Below, piece after piece: positions 12,601 to 36,833 of a stretch of 64,000 nt of DNA. Each line of letters starts with the position of its first letter. The stretch's first letter is position 1. The position numbers and the translations under genes are program-made. A model generated the notes under the pieces. That model ran no database searches. It saw only the letters and a program-made list of their open reading frames with translations, and was not told where the DNA came from. The stretch comes from an uncultured Sphingomonadaceae bacterium (GTDB lineage: Bacteria; Pseudomonadota; Alphaproteobacteria; Sphingomonadales; Sphingomonadaceae): assembly GCA_964401045.1 (NCBI GenBank), contig CAYNXB010000001.1, forward strand, positions 2,518-66,517, given 5' to 3'.

Positions 12601-13280
<680 letters not shown>

Positions 13281-13284
<4 letters not shown>

Positions 13285-14486
13285 ATCCCGATTGCCTCGA
13301 CAGGATCGATCCGCGAAGCCCGCCGGGCGGGGAGGAGCGACGCGAACGCAGCCGCGATTGTGGTCAGCGCGATCGCCAGAAGGAACCCGCCTGCCGCCGG
13401 GTCCAGCGGAAGCCGGCCTTCGCGGAATTCAGAGAGCGGCGGGGCCGGGAGCAAGGCCAGCCAGGCCGCAACGGCGCCGATGACCGCCCCTGACAGACCG
13501 ATCAGCGTTCCCTCGATCAAAAATATGGCCATGATCAGACGTTTTGTGCCGCCCATCGCGCGAATAATGCCGATCTCCGCCGAGCGCCGTACGATCGACA
13601 AAAGCATCGCGCTGGCGATCCCGATCACGATAGTAACCAGGGCGAACCCCTTGATGATCGTTCCCGTCCGGGCCTGTGCGTCGAGGCCTTCGAGCAGCTG
13701 GGCGTTCTCCTCGGTCCAGGCAGTTGTGCGGAGCCCGGTCGCCCGTCCGAGTTCCAACGCAATCGCCGATGCGGCCTCGACCGGATCGACCTTGATCTCG
13801 ATCCGCGACAAGCCGCTGGGGAGATCGAACAGGGCGCGTGCGGTGGTGAGGTTCATGTAGACGGTTTGCCGGTCCGCGCCGGCTATGCCGAGCGTGAATA
13901 TCCCGCCGATCCGGAAGCTGCGTGTCCGGCCACGGTCGGACGTCATGCGAACCAGCTGGCCCGCGCGCAGGCCAAGATCTTCCGCCATCAGGCTCCCGAT
14001 GAGAATGCTGTCGACAGGCAGGGCATCACTGCCCGCGACAATCGCGGAGCTGATGTCGGCGATGGCCGAGAGCTTGTCGGGCTCGACCCCGATCACGCCG
14101 ACCGCGGCGACGGCCTGACCGCGAACGACGAAGCCATTGCCGCGGATTTGCGGCGACACCGCCGTTACGCCCGCCGTGCGTTGAATGGGGTCGATGAACG
14201 GCTGCCATACCGCGATCTGCTCGCGGCGGCTCAGGTCTTTCTGAACCACGGCTTGCGCCCCTGTAAGGCCCTCGAGAAGTGCCGGCTCGCGCTCGCGCAT
14301 CTCCAGCACCACGTGCGGGATGCTCCCGACCGTCCTCAGAGTGAGCACGGTCGCAAGGCCACCGATCAGCGCACTCATGAAGATGAACACGCCAACTCCC
14401 ACCGCGACGCCGCTCATGAGGAGCACCGTCTGGCCGGGATGCGCTGACAGGTGGCGCAGCGCGATCTTGATCGCATACGGCGTCAC
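13281..14486 (-). CDS. ABC transporter permease (FtsX-like/MacB-type)
   Basis: 401 aa. An N-terminal TM is followed by a large periplasmic domain and the C-terminal FtsX-like 3-TM bundle. GTG 14486 overlaps the adaptor gene stop (GTGA). Confidence 0.88.
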
Positions 14487-15520
14487 GTCCGCACCCGTTG
14501 ACCGGGTCGCGCAGAAGCGGGCGAAGCAAGTATTCGCTCACCTGCCTTAAGGCCGGACTCGACGATGACCTGCTCCGCCGGCCAGTCCGCGATCCGCACC
14601 GGCCGCTCGCGTACGATGTCCCTGTCATCGAGCAGCCTAACCCGCGTGGATGCACCAGTGCCCAGCACCGCGCTACGGGGAATGCTCAGTGCGGACTTCC
14701 GCTCGTCGACGATCAGGTTGATGGTTACCGTGAGGCCGGCCGGAGCCTGCTCCGGCGTGTCCAGCAATTGCAGGCGCATCTCGCGCGCGCCGGTCGCGGG
14801 ATCGACCAGCGGCTCGATGTGGAGGACCGTCGCCCGCAGCGGCCGGGGCGTGCCCGGAAGGCTGACCACGGCGCGGGCACCGGGGCGCACTTGCGCGGCA
14901 TAGACTTCGTCCACTTCAGCGCTGATCTGAGGCGTGCTGAGGTCGGCCAGCCGATAGATCACCACGTTGGCGGCCACGACCTGCCCGGGATCAACCGGAC
15001 GGTCGAGAATGACGCCGGCGAACGGCGCCCGGATCACCCTGCGCTCGCGTTGCTTGCTGGCTTCCTCGACTGCAGCCCGGCGCCCTTGCAGCTCCCGAAT
15101 TCCCTCGGTCACCGCCAGCCTGCGCTCCTCCACTTCGCGCCGGGCCGCGAACTGCCCAAGGCCTTCGTAGCGCGCGAGTTCGCGCCGCGCCTGGGCGAGT
15201 GTCGCTTCCTGGGCTGCGACAGCCGCAAGGGCTTGGGCGATGGCCGCGGCTTCGGGGGCGTCATCGATCCGCGCCAGCACCGTGCCGGCCGAGACCCGTG
15301 CGCCCACGTCGAACGGCAACTCCCTCAGGGCCCCCCCGACCGGAGACTGGATCTCGACCGAAAGCAGCGGCCGGATCTTTCCATTGATCGCGAGGACCCG
15401 CATCGCCGGAGCCTCGGCAAGCCGAAGGACCGCCACGCGCGGGGGCTGCGGCCACAGCAGCCAAGCGGTTGCCAGCAGCGATGCGATAAGGACGGCGATG
15501 ACCAACGAGCGTCGTTTCAT
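14483..15520 (-). CDS. efflux periplasmic adaptor subunit (HlyD/MFP family)
   Basis: ATG 15520 (MKRRSLVIAVLIASLL...), a signal-anchor, then a coiled-coil hairpin and beta-barrel regions typical of MFPs. It is first in the operon with the two ABC genes. Confidence 0.85.
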   Translation of the reverse strand: MKRRSLVIAVLIASLLATAWLLWPQPPRVAVLRLAEAPAMRVLAINGKIRPLLSVEIQSPVGGALRELPFDVGARVSAGTVLARIDDAPEAAAIAQALAAVAAQEATLAQARRELARYEGLGQFAARREVEERRLAVTEGIRELQGRRAAVEEASKQRERRVIRAPFAGVILDRPVDPGQVVAANVVIYRLADLSTPQISAEVDEVYAAQVRPGARAVVSLPGTPRPLRATVLHIEPLVDPATGAREMRLQLLDTPEQAPAGLTVTINLIVDERKSALSIPRSAVLGTGASTRVRLLDDRDIVRERPVRIADWPAEQVIVESGLKAGERILASPASARPGQRVRT

Positions 15521-15712
15521 TGTCACCTGCGGACTGGTTCTGCGCGGACACTCGCCCGAAAGAGGGATAGAGGGAAGACTCCCGCGCGATCGGTTCACTG
15601 TTGCATCGAACTGCCCGTGCGCTCAGCTCATCCTTTCCAGCAGGCGGACAGGGCGCGCGGCGGGCGCTTTCACATTTGCGCCTGCGTGCACTCACAACCG
15701 ACCGCCGGCGTT

Positions 15713-15730
15713 TCCGGATATCTGCGTAAT
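15713..15730 (+). promoter_or_regulatory. conserved 18-bp box, copy 1 (TCCGGATATCTGCGTAAT); candidate regulator-binding site
   Basis: One of 12 related intergenic copies (see findings). It ends 52 nt upstream of the proposed start of the phosphorylase operon, in the divergent region shared with the HlyD/ABC operon. Confidence 0.45.
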
Positions 15731-15782: not shown

Positions 15783-17267
15783 TTGCCAACCATTCGCCAC
15801 ATCCCGATCGATACTTACCCGGAAAACACTGCGTTCATGCTGCGCCGGGGCGACGGATATTCAGCCGAACAGTTCCAGGCGCTGCGCAAAATCCGGGTGA
15901 CCGCGCCGAACGCTGAAATCCTTGCGACCCTCGCGCTGGTGGACGACGCGCGCATCGTCGGGCTGGGCGAAATTGGGCTCGGCGAACAGGCGTACCGCCG
16001 CCTAGCCCAGCCCGAGGGGACAGACGTCAGCGTCGCGCAGGCGCAACCGCCCGCGAGCCTCGAGTTCGTCCGCCGCAAGATCGATGGAGACTCGTTTCAG
16101 GCGGCCGAGCTCGCTGCGATCGTCGGCGATATTGCGAACCACCGGTACTCACCGATGGAAATCGGCGTCTTCCTGGTGGCGTGCGCCGGCTTCATGAGCA
16201 CCGAGGAAACACTGTTGCTCACGCGCGCAATGATCGATGTCGGTGACAGGCTGCAGTGGGATTCCCCGCTGGTCGTGGACAAGCACTGCATCGGCGGCAT
16301 TCCCGGTAATCGCACCTCCATGATCGTGGTGCCTATCGTCGCCGCTCATGGGCTGATCTGCCCGAAGACCTCCTCTCGCGCAATCACATCGCCGTCTGGC
16401 ACGGCCGACGCGATGGAGGTGCTCGCGCAGGTCGATTTCACCGAAGCGCAGATGTCGGCAATTGTCGCGAAAGAAAAGGCAGTACTGGCATGGGGCGGAC
16501 GTGTGCGCCTGTCTCCGGCCGACGATGTCCTGATCTCGGTCGAGCGGCCGCTGAGGCTCGACACGTTCGAGCAAATGGTGGCGTCGATCCTGTCGAAGAA
16601 GGCCGCCGCCGGTTCGACCCACCTGGTGATCGACATCCCGGTTGGCCCAACCGCGAAGGTGCGTTCGCAGAATGACGCCGTACGACTGCGCAAGCTGTTC
16701 GAATATGTCGCGCGCCACATCGGCATTGTCACGGACGTCGTCTTCACCGACGGCTCCCAGCCCGTGGGCCGCGGGATCGGTCCGGTGCTGGAAGCGCGCG
16801 ACGTCATGCAGGTTCTACGTGGCGCCGCAGACGCGCCGGCGGACTTGCGCGAGCGGGCGATATTCCTCGCAGGGCGAGTGCTGGAATTCGATCCTGCGTT
16901 GCGAGGGGGGGACGGGCCGCGGCGTGCGCGCGAGCTGCTTGCCTCGGGCGCTGCGCTGGTGGCGATGGAGCGGTTGATCGAAGCGCAAGGGCGCCAGACG
17001 CAAGCCCTCGTCCCGGGAGCCCATACGTTCGAGGTGACGGCGCCCACCGGCGGCCAGGTCCTGGCGATCGATTGCGAACGCCTTGCGCGCATCGCCCGGC
17101 TCGCCGGTGCGCCAATGGACAAGGGCGCGGGAATCGACCTGCGGCACAAAGTGGGCGCCCGCGTGAAGCGGGGTGCGCCGCTCTATTGCATCCACGCCAG
17201 CGCGCCGGAAGGACTGCGCTTCGCCCGCGAGCTTGCCAGCGATGGCGCCGGATACCGCATCGCATGA
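15783..17267 (+). CDS. thymidine phosphorylase family protein (archaeal-type putative thymidine/AMP phosphorylase)
   Basis: TTG 15783 is the first in-frame start that keeps the conserved N-terminus (PTIRHIPIDTYPENTAFML). The long upstream part of track ORF 15240.. overlaps the HlyD gene. Motifs DKHCIGGIPGNRTS and TSSRAITSPSGTADAMEVL match the TIGR02645-type 'putative thymidine phosphorylase' group rather than canonical DeoA (recollection). Confidence 0.85.
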   Translation: MPTIRHIPIDTYPENTAFMLRRGDGYSAEQFQALRKIRVTAPNAEILATLALVDDARIVGLGEIGLGEQAYRRLAQPEGTDVSVAQAQPPASLEFVRRKIDGDSFQAAELAAIVGDIANHRYSPMEIGVFLVACAGFMSTEETLLLTRAMIDVGDRLQWDSPLVVDKHCIGGIPGNRTSMIVVPIVAAHGLICPKTSSRAITSPSGTADAMEVLAQVDFTEAQMSAIVAKEKAVLAWGGRVRLSPADDVLISVERPLRLDTFEQMVASILSKKAAAGSTHLVIDIPVGPTAKVRSQNDAVRLRKLFEYVARHIGIVTDVVFTDGSQPVGRGIGPVLEARDVMQVLRGAADAPADLRERAIFLAGRVLEFDPALRGGDGPRRARELLASGAALVAMERLIEAQGRQTQALVPGAHTFEVTAPTGGQVLAIDCERLARIARLAGAPMDKGAGIDLRHKVGARVKRGAPLYCIHASAPEGLRFARELASDGAGYRIA

Positions 17268-18154
17268 TCGCCGCGATCTTCGCCTTTGCGGAATCCAGCG
17301 TCCAGGCCGGTCGTCTGGCCGACGAGCTCGGCCTTCCAAATCGCGCCGTCACCGTCCACCGGTTCCCCGACCGTGAGAGCCTGGTCCGGGTCGAGCGATC
17401 ACCGCCCACGGCGCTCTTGTATCGCTCGCTCGACGATCCGAACGCCAAGCTGGTTGAACTGCTGCTGGCGGTTTCCGCCCTTCGCGCCAACGGAGCGGCC
17501 CGCGTGATCCTGATCGCGCCGTACCTTGGCTATATGCGGCAGGATCGCGCGTTCCAGCCGGGCCAGGCGGTTAGCCAGCAGGTGGTAGGGCGACTATTGG
17601 CCGAGCGCATCGACGCGCTGTTGACTGTCGATCCGCACCTCCACCGAACGCATTCGCTCAGCCAGGTGGTGCCCGGAATCCCCGCAGTTGCACTGTCCGC
17701 GGCGCCTGTGCTCGCAGCCGCGCTCGGTCTTGCCGACGATCCCCTGATCGCGGGGCCGGACGACGAATCCGCAGCCTGGCTCGAGGCCGTCGCAGCTCCG
17801 CTGGGTCTCGAAACCTTGCTCGGGGCAAAACAACGACGAGGTGATCGACAGGTCGAAATCAGCTTCGCGAACATCGAGCGGTGCAAGGATCGACACGTGG
17901 TCCTGATCGACGACCTCATCTCGAGTTGCGAGACGATGAGGGAGGCCGCCCTGCAATTGCGCAAAGCCGGAGCGGCCCGTGTCGAGGTGCTCGCCACCCA
18001 TTGCCTTTCCTCGGAGGCGGACCTTGTCCGCCTGACGGGCGCAGGCGTCTTGCGGGTTCGGGCGACCGATACGGTGCCGGGTCCCGCTGCCTCCTTACCC
18101 ATCGCGGGATTGCTGGCGTCGGCCATCCGTCATCAACGCTGGGCAGGAGAATAG
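17264..18154 (+). CDS. ribose-phosphate pyrophosphokinase family protein (Prs-like, divergent PRPP loop)
   Basis: ATG 17264 overlaps the upstream stop (ATGA). Prs-family motifs PYLGYMRQDR and TVDPHLH are present. The PRPP loop reads VVLIDDLISSCETM, with SCET in place of the usual TGGT. Confidence 0.8.
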   Translation: MIAAIFAFAESSVQAGRLADELGLPNRAVTVHRFPDRESLVRVERSPPTALLYRSLDDPNAKLVELLLAVSALRANGAARVILIAPYLGYMRQDRAFQPGQAVSQQVVGRLLAERIDALLTVDPHLHRTHSLSQVVPGIPAVALSAAPVLAAALGLADDPLIAGPDDESAAWLEAVAAPLGLETLLGAKQRRGDRQVEISFANIERCKDRHVVLIDDLISSCETMREAALQLRKAGAARVEVLATHCLSSEADLVRLTGAGVLRVRATDTVPGPAASLPIAGLLASAIRHQRWAGE

Positions 18155-18155
18155 C

Positions 18156-19793
18156 GTGTCCAAATACCCGATCTCGCTGACCTTTCATGGCGCGGCACGC
18201 ACCGTCACCGGATCATGCATGGAGTTTAGCCATGAAGGTCGGTCGCTCCTGGTCGATTGCGGCCTTTTCCAGGGCTCGCGGACGCTGGAGAGTCTCAACT
18301 CGGGCGATTTTGCCTTCGACCCCGGTCGGCTCGGGGGAGTCGTGCTCACTCACGCCCACCTCGACCACAGCGGGCTCCTGCCGAAGCTCGCGGCGCAGGG
18401 ATTCAAGGGCCCGATCTGGTGCACTCAGCCAACCGCCGATCTTCTGGAATACATGCTGGCGGACGCCGGCCGAATCCAACAGAACGAGGCAGAGCGGCGC
18501 AATCGCCGGCGTGACCGGGCCGGGGAAGTCCCATTCCTCCCGATTTATACCGAGGCCGACGCTCACGACGCCTGGCGCCTGTGCAAGCCCGTTGCGCTGG
18601 AGGAATGGTTCGAGCCGGTCCCGGGCTTTCGTGCGCGGCTGTGGAACGCCGGCCATATCCTTGGGGCTGCTTCGGTCGAGCTCCAGGCGGGCGGTGTCCG
18701 CATCCTGTGCTCCGGGGACATCGGCCCCGGGCACAAGGCGTTCCAGAACGCCCCGGAAGCCCCCCAAGGCTTCGATCACGTGATTTGCGAGGGAACTTAC
18801 GGCGATCGGCAACGCGACAGAGTCACGATGGAGGAGCGGCGCAAAACCTTGGAAGCCGAGGTGCGTGGTGCGCTGACTCGCGGCGGCAACCTTGTCATTC
18901 CCGCATTCGCGCTCGAGCGGACGCAGGAGCTGCTGCTCGATCTCGATTTCCTGCTGCGCTCGGGCGCAATTCCGGAAGTCCAGGTATTCGTGGATTCGCC
19001 GCTTGCAAGCGAAGTCACGAGTGTCTTCGCCCGTTATGCGCGCGAGTTGCAAGACACCGGCGGGCAAAACATCTTCGCTCACCCCGCATTCCATTTCGTC
19101 CGCGACACCGCCGAGTCCATCCGGCTCAACTCGGTTTCGGGCGCCATCATCCTCGCCGCGTCCGGGATGTGCGAGGGAGGGCGCATCCGCCACCACCTGA
19201 TCCACAATCTAGCGCGGCGCGATTCAACCATCCTGTTCGTGGGTTTCCAGGCGCAAGGCACGCTTGGTCGGGTCCTGCTCGAAGGTGCGAAGGCCGTCCG
19301 CATCTCGGGGGCCGATGTGCGCGTTCAGGCGCAGATCCGCAGGATCGAGCACTATTCGGCGCATGCCGACAAGGATGAATTGCTCGACTGGATCGAGCGA
19401 CGCATGCCCATCTCCGGATCGGTGTTAATCGACCACGGCGAACCGGAAGCGGTGGAAGCAATCCGTCGCGAGCTGCAGCGGCGCTGGTCCAGTTTGGCGG
19501 TCATGCTACCCGAGCTGGGCGATACGTTCGGGCTCGCCGCGCGCCAAGCCGCGAAGCGGCTCGCGAAGGGCAACGTGTCCTTGCACGAAACCGTCGGCAC
19601 CGATTGGCAAAACGCTTACGCGGATTTCGCGACCTCGCTCAAAACCAGATTGAGCGCCATGCGCGATGGGCGCCAGCGCCGGGAAGCGATCGAGGAGATG
19701 CGCAAGGTTCTCGAGAGCTACAATTCAGCGCGTCAGGAGCGCACGAAGCGCCACGCTGTTCCGGCATCGCGCCATAGGCGGCGGCATGAGTGA
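18156..19793 (+). CDS. MBL-fold metallo-hydrolase with beta-CASP / RNA-specificity domain (RNase J/CPSF-like)
   Basis: GTG 18156 lies 1 nt after the Prs-like stop. The HAHLDHSG (HxHxDH) motif, beta-CASP motifs (ICEGTYG, HYSAHAD) and a C-terminal RMMBL-like region are present. Confidence 0.88.
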   Translation: MSKYPISLTFHGAARTVTGSCMEFSHEGRSLLVDCGLFQGSRTLESLNSGDFAFDPGRLGGVVLTHAHLDHSGLLPKLAAQGFKGPIWCTQPTADLLEYMLADAGRIQQNEAERRNRRRDRAGEVPFLPIYTEADAHDAWRLCKPVALEEWFEPVPGFRARLWNAGHILGAASVELQAGGVRILCSGDIGPGHKAFQNAPEAPQGFDHVICEGTYGDRQRDRVTMEERRKTLEAEVRGALTRGGNLVIPAFALERTQELLLDLDFLLRSGAIPEVQVFVDSPLASEVTSVFARYARELQDTGGQNIFAHPAFHFVRDTAESIRLNSVSGAIILAASGMCEGGRIRHHLIHNLARRDSTILFVGFQAQGTLGRVLLEGAKAVRISGADVRVQAQIRRIEHYSAHADKDELLDWIERRMPISGSVLIDHGEPEAVEAIRRELQRRWSSLAVMLPELGDTFGLAARQAAKRLAKGNVSLHETVGTDWQNAYADFATSLKTRLSAMRDGRQRREAIEEMRKVLESYNSARQERTKRHAVPASRHRRRHE

Positions 19794-19990: not shown

Positions 19991-20596
19991 TCAGTCTTTG
20001 GTTGCCGCCGTCTCGTGAGCGCGAAGCTTATCGCGAAACTCCTCAAGCCGGGCCCGATACCCTTCGGCATCGCCATACTCGAGGAACTCAAAATACCGGT
20101 GATGCGGATCGCTTACCCGCAGCGCGTGCTTGATCGGGCACCAATACTGCTCGGTCCGGCTCGCCACCTCGCGCACGTAGGCGATCAGTCCGTTCGCATA
20201 GCCGCAATAGAGGCAGTTGAGCGCTTCGATCCAGTTCAGATAGGCGAGGTGGCCCCGGTCGAGCGCGACATAGTCCGCCCTGCGCACGCGCGGAATTCCG
20301 TACGCCCGGAAACACACGGCCTGGTAGGCGCTGATCCACATATCGAGCACCAGCAGCGGAACGATCAGCGAATAGACGACCGGCGCGGACAGGTTTGTGG
20401 CGGAGGTTGAATCGGCCAGGAATCGCGCCGTGCCGATCCTGAACCTGCGTTGCTCGAGCGCCAGACCTTTCTCGAATTTGACGAGGCCATCCTTGAACGT
20501 CCATCCGAGCGCCTTGCGACGCCGTTCGATCTCCCGATCCAGCTCCTGCTGAAGGCGCACGATCTCGTCGGCCAGTTCGTGCATCCGCCTTGTCAT
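19991..20596 (-). CDS. hypothetical membrane protein (coiled-coil N-terminus, one or two TM helices, Cys-rich C-terminus)
   Basis: ATG 20596 is preceded by GGGAGGA. The 201-aa product has HELADEIVRLQQELDREIERRRKAL, a hydrophobic LSAPVVYSLIVPLLVLDMWISAY segment, then LNCLYCGYANG...YWCPIKH. No family was recognised. Confidence 0.6.
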   Translation of the reverse strand: MTRRMHELADEIVRLQQELDREIERRRKALGWTFKDGLVKFEKGLALEQRRFRIGTARFLADSTSATNLSAPVVYSLIVPLLVLDMWISAYQAVCFRAYGIPRVRRADYVALDRGHLAYLNWIEALNCLYCGYANGLIAYVREVASRTEQYWCPIKHALRVSDPHHRYFEFLEYGDAEGYRARLEEFRDKLRAHETAATKD

Positions 20597-20659
20597 GAAT
20601 CCTCCCGCGCAGTTGGAAGCCTCGACCACGTTCGATAGCCGGGTCTCCGGAACGGCAAA

Positions 20660-27423: not shown

Positions 27424-29268
27424 ATGAGCTTGCGTCGGGTCTTGGTTGAATCGACCGCCGCGAGATACGGGCTCTCGGCAATCGCCGTCGGCGCCGCCTA
27501 TCTCGTCCGACTGGCCGCGGATCCTATCCTCGACCAGAAGGCGCAGTTCCTTCCCTATGTGTTGCCTGTCGTTCTTGCCACCGTGGTCGCGAGGCTGGGT
27601 CCGGGCCTTTTTGCCGGATTTCTCTCGCTGATCGCCGGATTCAGCATGATCGATGCAAGCAGCCGGTTTTCCTCGGCGTCGCTTATCCAGGCGGGAATGT
27701 TCGTACTGGTATCGGCCGGGGTTTGTTGGCTCGATAGTCGACGTTCGTCGCAGAGGATGCTTGCCACGAGAGCGAATCGCCAGCTCAAGCTGCTGGTCGA
27801 AGGGGCAACCCAGTATGCGATATTCATGGTCGACCCGGTGGGGCGCATTATCAGCTGGAATGCCGGGGCTGAACGAATTCTCGGCTGGGCAAGAGGCGAG
27901 GTTCTGGGCCGACATTGCTCGCTGGTATTGAGCGGGCCGGAGACCGCGGAAAGAATGGCGGCACAGCTTGACACCGCGAAGCGCGAGGGTCGCTTTACCG
28001 AAGAGACCTGGCACAGGCGCGCCGATGGCTCGGAGTTCATCGCCGACATCTCGCTCACCTCCATCACGGACGACGACGGCACACACCTGGGCTTCGCCAA
28101 AGTCATCTACGATGTGACCGCGCGCAAGGCCGAGGAACGCGCACTTCAGCGGCGTGAGGAGCACCTGAAGTCGATCCTCGCAACCGTTCCCGACGCGATG
28201 ATCGTGATCGACGAAAAGGGCATCATCCTGTCCTTCAGCCAGGCCGCCGAGCGCCTCTTCGGCTATGCGGAAGCCGAGGTTGCCGGCAAGAACGTCAGCA
28301 TCCTGATGCCCCAGCCCGATCGCGACCGGCACGACGGGTATCTGGAGCGCTATCTCGCGACCGGCGTTCCACGTATCATCGGAATCGGCCGGCTCGTAAC
28401 CGGCTTGCGCGCCGACGGCAGCACATTCCCCATGGCCCTGTCCGTCGGCGAGGCGCACGCGGCCGACCAGCGGCTGTTCACCGGTTTCATCCAGGACCTG
28501 ACCGAGCGCCGCGATTTCGAGGCTAAGCTCGAGCAACTCCAGTCCGAGCTGATACACGTCTCTCGCCTGAGCGCGATGGGCACCTTGGCGTCGACGCTGG
28601 CGCATGAACTGAACCAGCCTCTTACCGCGATCGCCAGCTTCGGTGAGGCCGCCGCGGCCGTGCTGGAGCGCCCGGGCGACCCGGACAAGGCCATGCTGCG
28701 CGACGTGATGCGCGACATGACCGAGCAATCGCTCAGGGCGGGCGCCATCGTACGGCGCCTGCGCGAGTTCGTGTCCAAGGGCGACTTTGCCAAGACGTCC
28801 GAGGATCTCGCGAAAGTGATAGAGGAGGCAAGCGCGCTCGCCCTCGTCGGCGCGAGAGAGAAAGGGATTGCGGCCCACTTCACGTTCGCGCCCGATGCCA
28901 CGCCCGTGCTGATCGACCGCGTCCAGATCCAGCAGGTCCTGATCAACCTGATGCGAAACGGACTCGAGGCCATGGAGGGTATGCCGAGCAGGCGGCTAAG
29001 CGTGACAACCTCGCTGCTCGACGAGAATACCGTGCAGGTGTCCGTCGCCGACACCGGATGCGGAATCGATCCGCAAGTGAAGGCGCATTTGTTCGAAGCC
29101 TTCAACAGCAGCAAGAAGACAGGGATGGGATTGGGCCTGTCGATCTGCAGGACCATCATCGAAGCGCACGGGGGACGTATACGAGCCCTCGATGGCATTG
29201 ATGGAGGGACGGAGTTCCAGTTCACCTTGATGCGCGCGCGAGCCGCCGGCACGGACCCGCGCACGTGA
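27424..29268 (+). CDS. fixL: oxygen-sensor histidine kinase FixL (membrane N-domain, PAS, heme-PAS, HisKA, HATPase)
   Basis: The heme-PAS block [55 protein letters not shown] aligns residue-for-residue with my recollection of Bradyrhizobium FixL, including the proximal His in DRHD. H-box LAHELNQPL and the G-boxes are present. Confidence 0.9.
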
Positions 29269-30461: not shown

Positions 30462-30515
30462 TACCGGTATTCGAGCCGCATCTAAGTCGAGCCGGGCACC
30501 TGAGGAGGTTCGGCC

Positions 30516-31325
30516 ATGCGGTCCATTCTGCTTCACATCGACGACGACGCCTGTCTCGACGCGCGCATCGCAGTCGCGCTCGATCTCGCGCGGGCCTTCG
30601 ATGGGCACGTCACCTGCGTCCAGGCGATGCCGTTCGTGATCGGCATGCCAGGCGATCTCTATGGCACGATCGCGGCGCAGATGCTGCCCGAGTTTCGCGA
30701 ACTGGCCGACAAGCTGCGTGCGCGGATCGAGGCCCATCTCATCAAGGAGGATGTCAGCTGGAGCTGGGTGCAGGACGATGGACCGGCGATCGAGCGGCTG
30801 CTGCAATACACCGGCCTCAGCGACATTGCCGTGATCGGCTGCTGCGATCCCCTTCGCAAGGGCTACGCACCGCTCACGGGAGACCTCGTCCTCCGCTCGC
30901 GCACGCCGGTCCTGATCGTTCCCCCCAAAGCGGCCGGCTTCGATACCGATAGTCCGGCGGTCGTCGCATGGGACGGCTCGCCTGAGGCCCGCCGGGCACT
31001 GCGTGCCGCGGTGCCGCTGCTCGCCCGCTCGCAGGCAGTCACTCTGGCGACCGTCCGTGAGCCGTCCGAGCGGAAGCACGATCTGCCTCCGACCGATGGC
31101 GCCGAGTATCTTTCACGCCACGGCATCTCCTGTGAGATCGTCGAGTTGCCGGCATCGGAATCGATTGCCCGAGTGCTCACCGACGCCGCGTTGGTGCGCC
31201 GTGCCGGTTACCTCGTGATGGGCGCATACGGCCATGCCCGGCTCCTCGAGACGATCTTTGGAGGGGTCACGCGCGAGTTGCTCGCTCACCCGCCGGTACC
31301 CCTGCCGATTCTGGCTTGTCACTGA
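30516..31325 (+). CDS. universal stress protein (tandem Usp domains)
   Basis: GAGGAGG RBS; 269 aa with two Usp-like halves (ILLHIDDD..., AVVAWDGSPEA..., YLVMGAYGHARLLETIFGGVTRELL). It is a paralog of 36024-36833. Confidence 0.88.
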   Translation: MRSILLHIDDDACLDARIAVALDLARAFDGHVTCVQAMPFVIGMPGDLYGTIAAQMLPEFRELADKLRARIEAHLIKEDVSWSWVQDDGPAIERLLQYTGLSDIAVIGCCDPLRKGYAPLTGDLVLRSRTPVLIVPPKAAGFDTDSPAVVAWDGSPEARRALRAAVPLLARSQAVTLATVREPSERKHDLPPTDGAEYLSRHGISCEIVELPASESIARVLTDAALVRRAGYLVMGAYGHARLLETIFGGVTRELLAHPPVPLPILACH

Positions 31326-31407: not shown

Positions 31408-32070
31408 TTATTCAGGGCGCCGCTGGCCGACCTTGTACTGCTTCTTCCACGCGTCCTCCGATCCCATGCCGGCGACGAACGCCACGCGCAGGGCATCGGC
31501 GAAGTTGGTCACCTCGAGCTTGGTCATCACGTTCGCCCGATAGACTTCGACAGTGCGCGAGCTGATCCCTAGGTCGTAGGCGATCGTCTTGTTCGGATAC
31601 CCGCAGGCGAGGCCTTCGAGCACCTCGCGCTCGCGCTCGGTCAGCGCACCAATTTGCGTCCTGGCCCATTGCTCGCGCTGACGCTGCGCCGCCTTGTCGG
31701 ACAGCTGCGCATGACCAGTCTCGATCGAATCAAGCACACGTTGGCGATTGAACGGCTTCTCGAGGAAGTCGACCGCACCCCGTTGCATTGCCCTCACGGC
31801 GGTCGAGATGTCACCGTGCCCCGTGACCACGATCACCGGCAGGTTGATCCCCTGCTCGGCCATCGCCGCCTGGACTTCGAGCCCATCCATGCCGGGCATG
31901 CGCACGTCCAGCAACACGCAGGCAGGCCGCGCCCGTTCGACTCCCTTGAGGAACGCGATGCCGTCTTCCCAGCGTTCGACGGCGAAGCCGGCCGAGCGCA
32001 GCATGAAATCGAGCGAGCGCCGCACGGCGTCATCGTCGTCAACCACGTGGACCAGCTTATCCTGCGACAT
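31408..32070 (-). CDS. FixJ-family response regulator (REC + LuxR-type HTH), second copy
   Basis: ATG 32070 follows GGAGG. It has VHVVDDDD, CVLLDVRMPGMDG, VIVVTGHGD and FLEKPF, with the HTH TEREREVLEGLACGYPNKTIAYDLGISSRTVEVYR. The N-terminal extension of track ORF 31408..32601 overlaps the cupin gene region and is rejected. Confidence 0.88.
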   Translation of the reverse strand: MSQDKLVHVVDDDDAVRRSLDFMLRSAGFAVERWEDGIAFLKGVERARPACVLLDVRMPGMDGLEVQAAMAEQGINLPVIVVTGHGDISTAVRAMQRGAVDFLEKPFNRQRVLDSIETGHAQLSDKAAQRQREQWARTQIGALTEREREVLEGLACGYPNKTIAYDLGISSRTVEVYRANVMTKLEVTNFADALRVAFVAGMGSEDAWKKQYKVGQRRPE

Positions 32071-32126
32071 GGTTGCCTCCACCTGCCCTTCGCGCGCCCT
32101 ATCCCTCGCTCGACACCGGCGCATCA

Positions 32127-32144
32127 TCCGTAGATTTGCGAATG
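32127..32144 (+). promoter_or_regulatory. conserved 18-bp box, copy 7 (TCCGTAGATTTGCGAATG)
   Basis: Lies in the divergent region between the second fixJ-like gene and the cupin gene. It ends 85 nt upstream of ATG 32230. Confidence 0.35.
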
Positions 32145-32229
32145 GCGAAGATCGCCGGACGCGGCAAAGCTGGTGGACGTCACATAGCTCGCCCACACCC
32201 GGCGAGCAAACTGCGAAAGGGATAGGCCG

Positions 32230-32625
32230 ATGCGTGGTTTCGTCGGAAATATCGAAGACCTGACCGAGGAGAACGAGGATTTCCGGCGCGTGCTCTACAC
32301 CGGGCACCAGCTCCAGCTGGTGGTCATGGCCATCGGACCGGGCGAAGAGATCGGCGAGGAGGTCCATACCGACCGGGACCAGTTCTTCCGGGTCGAGGAA
32401 GGCAAGGGCGAGGTGTGGATCGACGGCGTGTGCCACGAGGTCGAGGGCGACTACGGCGTGATCGTTCCGCAGGGCGCGCGGCACAACGTGAAGTGCACCG
32501 GCCACAAGCCGCTCCGCCTGTATACGATCTACGGCCCGCCCGAGCATCTCGACGGCACCGTCCACGCCTCCCGCAAGGACGCCGCGGCGGCGCACGAGCA
32601 CTTCGACGGCGTTACGACCGAATAG
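32230..32625 (+). CDS. cupin domain-containing protein
   Basis: 131 aa. The cupin motifs are EEVHTDRDQFFRVEEG (G-x5-H-x-H-type region) and VIVPQGARHNV. Confidence 0.8.
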   Translation: MRGFVGNIEDLTEENEDFRRVLYTGHQLQLVVMAIGPGEEIGEEVHTDRDQFFRVEEGKGEVWIDGVCHEVEGDYGVIVPQGARHNVKCTGHKPLRLYTIYGPPEHLDGTVHASRKDAAAAHEHFDGVTTE

Positions 32626-35704: not shown

Positions 35705-35954
35705 GCACAATCGATCGGGCAATTCGCCGGCGCGTCCGGTCCGGCGTGGCGGAGCAGGCCGGCCTGCGCCTGCGCCTCGCACCGCAGCGGCATCGGTGCT
35801 CAGGCCGACGATGATCGTCGCCAATTGCGGCCGCGATGGAGGTTTGCGAAGCGGTCCGCGCTGTCCCGGTAACCTGACGGCGCCTGCTCGTCGCTCCCCC
35901 CTCAGCTGCCTCCCTGAAGATCGATAATCGCGGGGCGCTGCCTCGGCAGGCGCT

Positions 35955-35972
35955 TCCGGATATCTCCGGAGT
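35955..35972 (+). promoter_or_regulatory. conserved 18-bp box, copy 12 (TCCGGATATCTCCGGAGT)
   Basis: Ends 51 nt upstream of ATG 36024. The flanking ...GTTACCGG... is shared with copy 6. Confidence 0.45.
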
Positions 35973-36023
35973 TACCGGCTCTCGGCCGCTGCGTACCACG
36001 TAGCGAACACGAGGAGTTCGGCC

Positions 36024-36833
36024 ATGCGGTCCATTTTGCTTCATATCGACGATGATCCGTGTCTCGAGGCGCGCATTCAGGTCGCGCTTGATCTCGCGCG
36101 GTGCTTCGAAGGGCATGTCACCTGCATCCAGGTGATCCCGTACGTCGTCGGAATGCCGGGCGACTTCTACGGGTCCATGGCCGCCGATCTGGTGCCTGCG
36201 TTCCAGGAGGCGGCCGACGCGCTGAGAGCACGGATCGAAGGCAATCTCGCGAACGAGGACGTCAGTTGGAGCTGGGTGCAGGAAGACGGTCCCGCTGTCG
36301 ATCGGATGCTGAAATTCACCAGTCTGAGCGACATCGCGGTGGTCGGCTGCTGCGATCCACTCCGCAAGGATTATTCGCCGTTGCCCGGTGACCTCGCGAT
36401 CCGTTCGCGCACGCCGGTGCTGGTGGTTCCGCCCAAGTCGAACGGGCTGGACTGCGGCGGCCCCGCTCTGGTGGCCTGGGACGGATCCCCCGAAGCTTGC
36501 CGTGCATTGCGCGCTGCGTTGCCTCTGCTGGCGCGTTCCTCGAGCGTGACGCTCGCCACCGTGCGCGAAAAGGCCGAGCGCCGCTACGATCTGCCGCCGA
36601 CCGACGGGGCCGAATATCTCTCGCGCCACGGCATATCCTGCGAGATGGTCGAGTTTCCGGCCGCCACGTCGATCGCCCATGCGCTCGGCGACGCCGCGAT
36701 GGTTCGCAATGCGTCCTACCTCGTGATGGGGGTCTATGGCCACGCGCGGCTGGTCGAGACAGTCTTCGGTGGGGTCACACGCGAGGTGCTCGCGAACCCG
36801 CCGGTGCCGTTGCCGATTCTGGCTTGCCATTGA
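36024..36833 (+). CDS. universal stress protein (tandem Usp domains), paralog of 30516-31325
   Basis: GAGGAG RBS. It has the same 269-aa length and collinear similarity to the 30516 copy along the whole protein, including the C-terminal PPVPLPILACH. Confidence 0.88.
   Translation: MRSILLHIDDDPCLEARIQVALDLARCFEGHVTCIQVIPYVVGMPGDFYGSMAADLVPAFQEAADALRARIEGNLANEDVSWSWVQEDGPAVDRMLKFTSLSDIAVVGCCDPLRKDYSPLPGDLAIRSRTPVLVVPPKSNGLDCGGPALVAWDGSPEACRALRAALPLLARSSSVTLATVREKAERRYDLPPTDGAEYLSRHGISCEMVEFPAATSIAHALGDAAMVRNASYLVMGVYGHARLVETVFGGVTREVLANPPVPLPILACH

Follow-up and report, generated by a model that had tools for sequence, protein, structure and literature searches.

A conserved, translationally coupled bacterial gene unit of an AMP-phosphorylase-like protein, a PRPP synthase paralogue and a β-CASP ribonuclease

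Three tightly packed genes of an uncultured Sphingomonadaceae bacterium (assembly GCA_964401045.1, contig CAYNXB010000001.1) raise the question of what an enzyme annotated as a thymidine phosphorylase, a paralogue of the phosphoribosyl pyrophosphate (PRPP) synthase Prs and a ribonuclease (RNase) would do together. We analyzed the surrounding stretch of 64,000 nucleotides, hereafter the window, in which the three are referred to as genes 1, 2 and 3. The trio is a conserved, co-oriented and translationally coupled unit. We consider it somewhat probable that it represents a conserved stress or low-oxygen operon for the recycling of RNA and nucleotides, in which the Prs paralogue would act as a true PRPP synthase; every enzymatic step of this reading is one that we infer.

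The three genes leave almost no space between them. Gene 1 has a TTG start codon at 15783, with GGAGGGGAGACAGAGG, a GGAGG-rich stretch, ahead of it, and its stop codon occupies 17265–17267. The ATG of gene 2 overlaps this stop codon in an ATGA at 17264–17267. Gene 2 ends with a TAG at 18152–18154, and the single base at 18155 separates it from the GTG start of gene 3 at 18156, whose stop codon lies at 19791–19793. An independent gene call on a public contig with identical DNA contains the same three genes (494, 296 and 545 amino acids). The ATGA overlap and the 1-nt gap reported in a preliminary description of this DNA are therefore correct, and the motifs quoted there (DKHCIGGIPGNRTS, TSSRAITSPSGTADAMEVL and DDLISSCETM) are all present in the proteins. 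A scan for sigma-70 promoters and terminators inside the operon returned nothing above chance.

To which type of phosphorylase does the first protein belong? It scores 583.5 bits against TIGR02645 (cut-off 434.6) and 667.5 bits against NF003338 (cut-off 434), and contains the Pfam domains Glycos_trans_3N, Glycos_transf_3 and PYNP_C. The best match among solved structures is 4GA5 (4GA4 likewise; E = 1.6e-95), which carries the PDB title 'putative thymidine phosphorylase' and which we take to be the AMP phosphorylase of Thermococcus kodakarensis. The two proteins are 42.9% identical over 427 aligned residues. Gene 1 encodes an N-terminal extension of the kind found in AMP phosphorylases, in which some 85 residues precede the thymidine-phosphorylase core: residues 3–491 fall within the profile match, the full-length alignment with 4GA5 begins at residue 47, and the Pfam helical bundle begins only at residue 94.

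The active-site motifs point in the same direction. The window protein, its bacterial clade and the T. kodakarensis enzyme share GG-x-PGN[RK]T, with a one-residue insertion, and PKTSSRAITS-x-x-GTAD; in the form PKTSSRA[IV]TS-x-x-GTAD, the second motif is present in the window protein and in all members of the bacterial clade. The AMP phosphorylase of Natrialba magadii keeps the second motif but has GGVAGNCVT in place of the first. At these positions, GGV-GDKVS and PMISGRGLGHTGGTLD are found in human thymidine phosphorylase. Across 69 bacterial members, 130 positions are at least 95% conserved, and 89 of them are identical in both archaeal AMP phosphorylases; bacteria-specific changes are few and mostly conservative. 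By sequence, the gene 1 product is thus AMP-phosphorylase-like and not thymidine-phosphorylase-like, and the label 'archaeal-type thymidine/AMP phosphorylase' of the preliminary description is borne out in its AMP-phosphorylase part by the motifs, the overall identity and the conserved positions. Given these shared motifs and positions, the most economical reading of its chemistry would be the reversible conversion of a nucleoside monophosphate (NMP) and phosphate to a free base and ribose-1,5-bisphosphate.

The second protein is a member of the Prs family. It scores 170.5 bits against TIGR01251 (cut-off 113) and 321 bits against NF005537/PRK07199, one bit short of the cut-off of 322. Its best structural match is 1U9Y (E = 5e-31), which we take to be the class III Prs of Methanocaldococcus jannaschii. 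RFPDxE, RQD, the DPH histidine, the PD aspartate, the K-x-R loop, the DD ribose ligands and the 5-phosphate loop are all found in it. In an alignment of 61 diverse Prs-like sequences, on which we scored conservation, R92, Q93, H125, H127, R128, E168, K189, R191, D216, D217, T224 and H246 are invariant, and conservation reaches at least 90% for D166 and S220, both of which the window protein has. We assigned residue roles from what is known of the Prs enzymes of Bacillus subtilis and M. jannaschii: R92, Q93, H125, K189, R191, D216, D217 and T224 are presumably catalytic or substrate-binding. H127, R128 and E168 are invariant residues particular to the PRK07199-type family.

The preliminary description had read the sequence DDLISSCETM as a divergent PRPP loop. 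We compared this loop in 120 close homologues and in 120 full-length representatives of clusters at 50% identity. The consensus of these 240 relatives is DD-x-x-S-[ST]-G-x-T, in agreement with the archaeal S-T-G-G-T loop. The fourth position of the loop is free (G, A, E, H, R, T, M, V or Q), and Glu is common there. We therefore rejected the loop as a sign of a novel substrate specificity: it follows the family norm, and only its cysteine is unusual. Cys222 (17927–17929) is private to the window genome (one of the 120 close homologues; one of 121 aligned sequences, comprising the window protein and the 120 representatives) and replaces a phosphate-loop glycine that is at least 90% conserved. 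Alanine occurs at this position in other Prs proteins. Cys222 is unlikely to be a sequence error because the protein that bears it is identical in assemblies from two separate sequencing runs. Taken together, the family-norm loop, the retained catalytic residues, and the stand-alone relatives and a relative fused to ribose-5-phosphate isomerase A (RpiA) described below suggest that the Prs paralogue is most likely a true PRPP synthase of the archaeal type.

The third protein contains the Pfam domains Lactamase_B, Beta-Casp (120 bits) and RMMBL. Metallo-β-lactamase motifs 1–4 (HAHLDH, GH and SGD among them) and β-CASP motifs A–C, with the Glu of ICEGTYG and the His residues of SAHAD and IDHGE, are all present, and the protein ends in a basic C-terminal tail of about 90 amino acids. 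Its best structural match is 2DKF, the Thermus thermophilus ribonuclease TTHA0252 (E = 3e-71), followed by archaeal and eukaryotic enzymes of the CPSF-73 type. No RNase J model is among its NCBIfam matches, the best of which, Cas14 and aCPSF1, lie far under their cut-offs. Of the earlier label 'RNase J/CPSF-type', the CPSF-73/TTHA0252 half is thus retained and the RNase J half is not. Searched with PADLOC defence models, the trio yielded nothing except a weak phosphoribosyltransferase-domain match to PsyrT (E = 2e-5). With no match to a PADLOC system, we rejected a role in anti-phage defence; a TIR gene near one plasmid copy looks coincidental.

Are the three genes linked beyond this organism? 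We scanned one genome per species, confirmed at least 598 Prs-like matches and kept the best 80 loci, which come from alpha-, beta-, gamma- and zetaproteobacteria and one Thermodesulfatator metagenome-assembled genome (MAG). The loci were anchored on the Prs-like protein, and neighbours were identified by tblastn and by all-against-all clustering of the neighbouring open reading frames (ORFs). Of the 68 loci whose upstream DNA reaches far enough, 60 have the phosphorylase gene directly upstream of the Prs gene in the same orientation. The median distance from the phosphorylase stop to the Prs start is −1 nt, and in 67 of 70 loci it does not exceed 30 nt. A β-CASP gene follows directly downstream of Prs in 28 of 70 loci by clustering, and in about 31 by tblastn. 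No further neighbour is conserved, the next commonest being an OmpR-type regulator (12 loci), a short-chain dehydrogenase (10), Ku (9) and P-type ATPases (8). A search at E < 1e-30 gave 240 Prs-like clusters at 50% identity, and a search of plasmid-encoded proteins with the phosphorylase returned 126 records. The Prs paralogue is an accessory copy that is frequently carried on plasmids and almost invariably coupled to the phosphorylase. Exceptions occur in Azospirillum, which has Prs and RNase without the phosphorylase, and in Roseateles and Rubrivivax, where Prs stands alone beside pyrB- and pyrC-like genes.

A second clade, with 44–49% identity, has the order RNase, phosphorylase, Prs, joined by 4-nt overlaps, on plasmids of Sphingomonas, Ralstonia and Ruegeria. 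That the linkage exists in two gene orders speaks for a functional unit and against inherited synteny. The islands around this plasmid clade hold copper P-type ATPases, CueR, Hsp20, FtsH and DUF2933. On the plasmids of Sphingomonas koreensis (L084) and Ralstonia pickettii (L085), the trio adjoins DUF2933 and an isoprenylcysteine carboxyl methyltransferase-family gene, heavy-metal P-type ATPases and Hsp20 or FtsH; on that of Ruegeria sp. (L087), DUF2933 and a copper P-type ATPase lie near the trio, with no methyltransferase, Hsp20 or FtsH nearby. This setting looks like a mobile general-stress island. In Legionella adelaidensis, the phosphorylase–Prs pair lies beside a copper ATPase, and a plasmid of Bradyrhizobium septentrionale carries a universal stress protein (USP) gene, phosphorylase, Prs and RNase in succession.

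Natural fusions bring the two enzymes still closer. In P0354 (724 amino acids), a Prs whose signature is intact precedes a phosphorylase with a core of the AMP-phosphorylase type, and a search with this fusion found 13 clusters with both domain sets among the best 120. Four of these, the metagenomic proteins P0392, P0395, P0396 and P0401, have the reverse order, and at their clean junctions the C-terminus of the phosphorylase runs straight into the N-terminus of Prs. We discarded as evidence the 1193-residue RNase–phosphorylase–Prs protein P0425 and some fusions of about 800 residues, which have Arg-rich junctions and may be out-of-frame read-through. Fusions in both orders suggest that phosphorylase and Prs act together; with the gene overlap and the near-universal adjacency, they show the two to be a pair, which is predicted to be physical or kinetic. 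The neighbourhood comparison across bacteria proposed in the preliminary description thus came out in favour of conserved linkage.

One fusion bears on the substrate of the family. P0336 combines a Prs of the same signature (DPHLHR, PDEES) with RpiA. It occurs on three metagenomic contigs (L091–L093), where it is followed by genes of the OMP-decarboxylase family (hexulose-phosphate-synthase-like), the SIS family (Phi-like) and GPI/ROK; these genes would form a compact operon leading from hexose phosphate to PRPP. In such a pentose-synthesis operon, the Prs domain must use ribose-5-phosphate, which weakens the case for a specialization of the family on ribose-1,5-bisphosphate.

Under which conditions is the unit expressed? 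In Bradyrhizobium diazoefficiens, bll3117-bll3116-bll3115 is a predicted operon that is induced in microoxia and depends on FixK2 (PMC6515984, PMC9104804). At 0.5% O2, the three proteins change by log2 +2.1, +4.4 and +2.9, and the transcripts rise 5.1-, 7.7- and 15.4-fold in microoxia (PMC6515984). Deletion of fixK2 lowers bll3117 6.6-fold and bll3115 30.6-fold at 0.5% O2, and a FixK2 box is present (PMC9104804). Neither expression paper discusses the function of these genes (PMC6515984, PMC9104804). Upstream of the phosphorylase gene in two Bradyrhizobium loci of our set (L039 and L075), we found the exact published FixK2 box, ATGATCTGGGTCAA; the proteins of these loci are 55–57% (phosphorylase), 45% (Prs) and 45–46% (RNase) identical to those of the window. 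More broadly, 23 of 62 loci have an FNR/FixK-like box (TTGA-N6-TCAA with at most one mismatch, no more than 230 nt upstream of the phosphorylase gene), where about 5 would be expected, and most of the boxes lie at −76 to −115. The Bradyrhizobium data and these boxes support the low-oxygen context suggested in the preliminary description; for the window trio itself, low-oxygen control is a candidate proposed by analogy.

Our literature search, which covered the pair, the trio, the family accessions and proteobacterial AMP phosphorylase, returned only the two Bradyrhizobium expression papers and no functional study. The trio may therefore be called uncharacterized in function, as had been supposed, although in B. 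diazoefficiens it already figures in published lists as a predicted FixK2-dependent operon. All three protein families are known, and the trio appears in Bradyrhizobium regulon tables. New relative to the literature searched are how widespread and how tight the coupling is, the existence of a second gene order and of fusions, the likeness of the 'thymidine phosphorylase' to AMP phosphorylases and the recognition that the Prs loop is not the clue.

How could the three proteins work together? By homology with TTHA0252, the β-CASP RNase would cut RNA and trim it in the 5'→3' direction to 5'-NMPs. The phosphorylase, going by its 43% identity and shared active-site motifs, would convert NMP and phosphate reversibly to base and ribose-1,5-bisphosphate. 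The Prs paralogue would form PRPP and AMP from ribose-5-phosphate and ATP, and with this PRPP a cell whose respiration is limited could re-attach the bases set free, as well as NAD precursors, and so bypass de novo synthesis. The conservative link between the two enzymes would be AMP, which Prs produces and the phosphorylase would consume; an alternative link might be ribose-1,5-bisphosphate.

Several observations weigh against this recycling scheme. The gene 1 protein falls below the equivalog cut-off of the AMP phosphorylase model TIGR03327, AMP_phos (466 versus 535 bits). Cys222 might weaken the Prs paralogue. The RNase is missing from about 60% of the loci, which makes it an accessory part. 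To release bases only to re-attach them looks like a futile cycle, unless one type of base is exchanged for another or the two steps happen at different times, and neither the window nor the set of conserved neighbours shows a sink for ribose-1,5-bisphosphate. Finally, the scan for TTGA-N6-TCAA found no FNR/FixK box in the promoter of the window trio, which has instead a box of its own with no known binding protein, so that low-oxygen control in this organism is an analogy.

In two alternatives, Prs acts directly on the product of the phosphorylase. In the pathway proposed in the preliminary description, the Prs-like enzyme would turn ribose-1,5-bisphosphate and ATP into PRPP, in the manner of PhnN, and thereby pull the unfavourable phosphorolysis. 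The strict pairing, the translational coupling and the fusions do argue for consecutive steps, a sink is needed and no other is conserved nearby, and the family has its own invariant H127, R128 and E168 beside the catalytic His and Asp. We nevertheless consider this step unlikely. The same DPHLHR/PDEES signature occurs in the Prs–RpiA fusion, in an operon of the ribulose-monophosphate type where the substrate must be ribose-5-phosphate, and stand-alone members lie beside pyrB/pyrC-like genes; both observations weaken the proposal. Moreover, all residues for diphosphoryl transfer from ATP are kept, and transfer of the γ-phosphate to a 1-phosphate would, judging from Prs chemistry, need another geometry. 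The retained residues would be expected if Prs instead ran its usual type of reaction in reverse on a shorter substrate, converting ribose-1,5-bisphosphate and AMP to ribose-5-phosphate and ADP, with the pentose phosphate then fermented: the attack on a β-phosphate and the AMP leaving group would be the same. To our knowledge, such a reaction with ribose-1,5-bisphosphate has been described for no Prs. It would keep the energy of the RNA glycosidic bond as a phosphoanhydride bond, and its product would fit the RpiA fusion. The published low-oxygen regulons include enzymes of pentose fermentation, with phosphoketolase and acetate kinase in B. diazoefficiens (PMC9104804), and with acetate kinase, ribokinase and defects in ribose and nucleoside use for the Burkholderia cenocepacia lxa mutant (PMC3721108). 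By a rough estimate, however, the two steps summed are uphill at standard conditions, and the scan of window proteins turned up neither phosphoketolase nor acetate kinase. We rate this energy-conserving breakdown as a shade less probable still than the PhnN-like step.

The fused or coupled PRPP synthase would also be a natural supplier for a PRPP user, and the phosphorylase homologue could then be a PRPP-dependent phosphoribosyltransferase of the TrpD fold that ribosylates a base or another acceptor. It shows a weak similarity to TrpD models (TIGR01245, E = 2.8e-5). Against this, the 89 of 130 positions and the phosphate-site motifs are identical to those of archaeal AMP phosphorylases, which use phosphate, and no bacteria-specific acidic pair that could form a metal–pyrophosphate site was found beside the aligned phosphate-site motifs; the conserved acidic residues specific to bacteria, E307, D323 and D354, lie elsewhere in the sequence. 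A transferase thus appears quite improbable. That three housekeeping genes for salvage and RNA decay are adjacent by chance seems very improbable indeed. Every protein does belong to a known family with a routine annotation, but chance is contradicted by the conservation data: overlapping adjacency is kept across proteobacterial classes, in two orders and as fusions, copies lie on accessory plasmids and in stress islands, and the Bradyrhizobium orthologues are induced by low oxygen (PMC6515984). A bolder and, in our view, doubtful though conceivable extension is that the pair forms a two-step machine that takes RNA-derived NMPs to ribose-5-phosphate while saving the bond energy, either through AMP to ADP or, with ATP, as PRPP. 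If so, it would give bacteria their own equivalent of the archaeal pentose bisphosphate pathway, with an enzyme of the Prs fold replacing isomerase and RuBisCO, and oxygen-starved bacteria could live off their ribosomes.

Table 1. Features of the trio, its upstream box and neighbouring elements in the window
Feature	Position	Strand	Description
AMP-phosphorylase-type NMP phosphorylase homologue (gene 1)	15783..17267	+	494 aa; annotated 'thymidine phosphorylase family protein' (TIGR02645/PRK04350)
Prs paralogue (gene 2)	17264..18154	+	296 aa; PRK07199 subfamily; nearest archaeal class III PRPP synthases
β-CASP metallo-β-lactamase RNase (gene 3)	18156..19793	+	545 aa; TTHA0252/CPSF-73 type
Box TTCCGGATATCTGCGTA	15712-15728	+	17 nt; 55 nt upstream of TTG start
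Box site	21924	+	Upstream of orf122 and Zn alcohol dehydrogenase
Box site	24163	+	Upstream of USP and P-type ATPase pair
Box sites	30443 and 35954	+	Upstream of tandem-type USP genes
Box site	34925	+	Upstream of triple-BON-domain gene
MacB-type ABC exporter	12601..15598	-	Divergent; Pfam on identical contig
ABC exporter, ATPase	12601-13284	-	
ABC exporter, FtsX/MacB permease	13281-14486	-	
ABC exporter, membrane-fusion protein	14483-15598	-	

The promoter of the window trio carries a box that recurs in the surrounding island (Table 1). Allowing at most three mismatches, we found eight matches at six sites, where 1.08 would be expected; none of 100 shuffles had more than three. The 'box copy 1' placed upstream of the trio in the preliminary description is therefore real. 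The best copy, TTCCGGATATCTCCGGA (35954–35970), is near-palindromic and the box is distinct from the FNR/FixK box. Across the six operons, it lies about 55–185 nt upstream. As one of six promoters with the box in the window, that of the trio may be co-regulated with the others, and the box is probably bound by a regulator that the island itself encodes. Candidates are a LuxR-type response regulator (31408–32601, − strand) and a PAS histidine kinase (27424–29268).

The two tandem-type USP genes below this box (30516–31325 and 36024–36833) are paralogues, 77% identical over 300 nt. The matching stretches (30508–30807 and 36016–36315) are spaced exactly 5508 nt apart, each with a box copy upstream, and this similarity together with the box copies suggests a duplication inside the island. 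USP genes also occur beside an archaeal relative: on plasmid pNMAG02 of N. magadii (L088, 4095–6748), the AMP phosphorylase gene is flanked on both sides by USP genes, echoing the bacterial association.

Other neighbours lie outside the core unit. The divergent MacB-type exporter was considered as a member and rejected: it is linked to the trio only in some Sphingomonadales (the window, L001 and L005) and is missing from most of the 80 loci. An ABC ATPase homologue lies 3' of the Prs gene in two Novosphingobium loci, and on plasmid pNL2 of Novosphingobium aromaticivorans an FtsX permease and a membrane-fusion adaptor are found there as well. The exporter is thus a lineage-specific companion. 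Convergent with the RNase gene lies a 212-residue ORF (19991–20629, − strand) with four conserved Cys residues and a membrane-like middle segment, which has no Pfam or PADLOC match. A homologue with 52% identity lies directly 3' of the Prs gene in a Thiogranum MAG (L040, 10896–11450). As this is the single Prs-adjacent homologue and the ORF is otherwise absent from the loci, we did not count it as a core part.

At nine loci, all from Bradyrhizobium and related MAGs (L015, L019, L024, L030, L036, L039, L043, L066 and L075), a gene for the non-homologous end-joining protein Ku lies about 1–2.5 kb upstream of the trio, or about 3.5 kb away when measured from midpoint to midpoint of the genes. The OmpR-type response regulator is near the trio in most of these Ku-linked loci, and some of its 12 loci fall outside that group.

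The phosphorylase–Prs pair is widespread in low-oxygen, dormancy and metal- or heat-stress islands of soil, plant-associated and pathogenic bacteria, including Bradyrhizobium, Legionella, Ralstonia and Sphingomonas. Annotation as 'thymidine phosphorylase' and 'PRPP synthase' hides both the AMP-phosphorylase type of the first enzyme and the near-constant pairing. The chemistry of the pair would reveal how RNA, AMP and ribose phosphate are dealt with in non-growing bacteria once respiration fails, and it would carry ribose-1,5-bisphosphate metabolism beyond the archaea to common bacteria. The natural fusions and the small size of the operons make this chemistry directly testable with three purified proteins.

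To place the unit among known systems, we compared it with characterized enzymes and regulons. The family of gene 2 shares RFPDxE, PY-x-Y-x-RQD, DPH, the K-x-R loop and DD-x-x-S-T-G-x-T with the class III PRPP synthase of M. jannaschii (1U9Y), but is the separate PRK07199 subfamily with its own invariant H127, R128 and E168. Gene 3 has all the metal-binding and β-CASP motifs of TTHA0252 and CPSF-73, and differs from these RNases in its extra basic C-terminal tail of about 90 residues and in being embedded in an operon of nucleotide enzymes. The operon bll3117-bll3115 of B. diazoefficiens consists of the same three families in the same order; it is preceded by a FixK2 box, whereas the window has the other, near-palindromic box common to USP and BON genes.

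The island as a whole resembles the lxa locus of B. cenocepacia and the DosR-type dormancy sets of mycobacteria. The lxa locus includes a low-oxygen-induced 'metal-dependent RNase', and its deletion impairs the use of ribose, deoxyribose, thymidine and nucleosides (PMC3721108). Like these sets, the window island contains several USPs, BON ('phospholipid-binding') proteins and Zn alcohol dehydrogenases, together with a cation P-type ATPase, an ABC exporter, a two-component system and a metal-dependent RNase, the RNases being likened by description (PMC3721108). In contrast to the window, the published lxa table lists neither a phosphorylase nor a Prs gene (PMC3721108).

The closest biochemical parallel is the archaeal NMP degradation or pentose bisphosphate pathway of T. 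kodakarensis, in which AMP phosphorylase, ribose-1,5-bisphosphate isomerase and type III RuBisCO act together (PMC5113843, PMC9700705). In archaea, PRPP synthase also feeds this pathway, by way of the conversion of PRPP to AMP (PMC5113843). The first enzymes of the two systems are homologous and share the phosphate-site motifs, the motifs on the 5'-phosphate side and the N-terminal extension. The trio differs in having no isomerase or RuBisCO, either among the scanned window proteins or as a conserved neighbour; as the preliminary description had noted, no such partner is visible in the window, and a Pfam scan of 33 window proteins, which was not exhaustive, found no RuBisCO or IF-2B-type isomerase. 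In their place, the bacterial unit has a coupled Prs paralogue and often a β-CASP RNase, and its hosts are aerobic or facultative proteobacteria in which the operon belongs to low-oxygen or stress regulons. On these grounds, the trio would be a bacterial, Prs-coupled version of archaeal NMP phosphorolysis.

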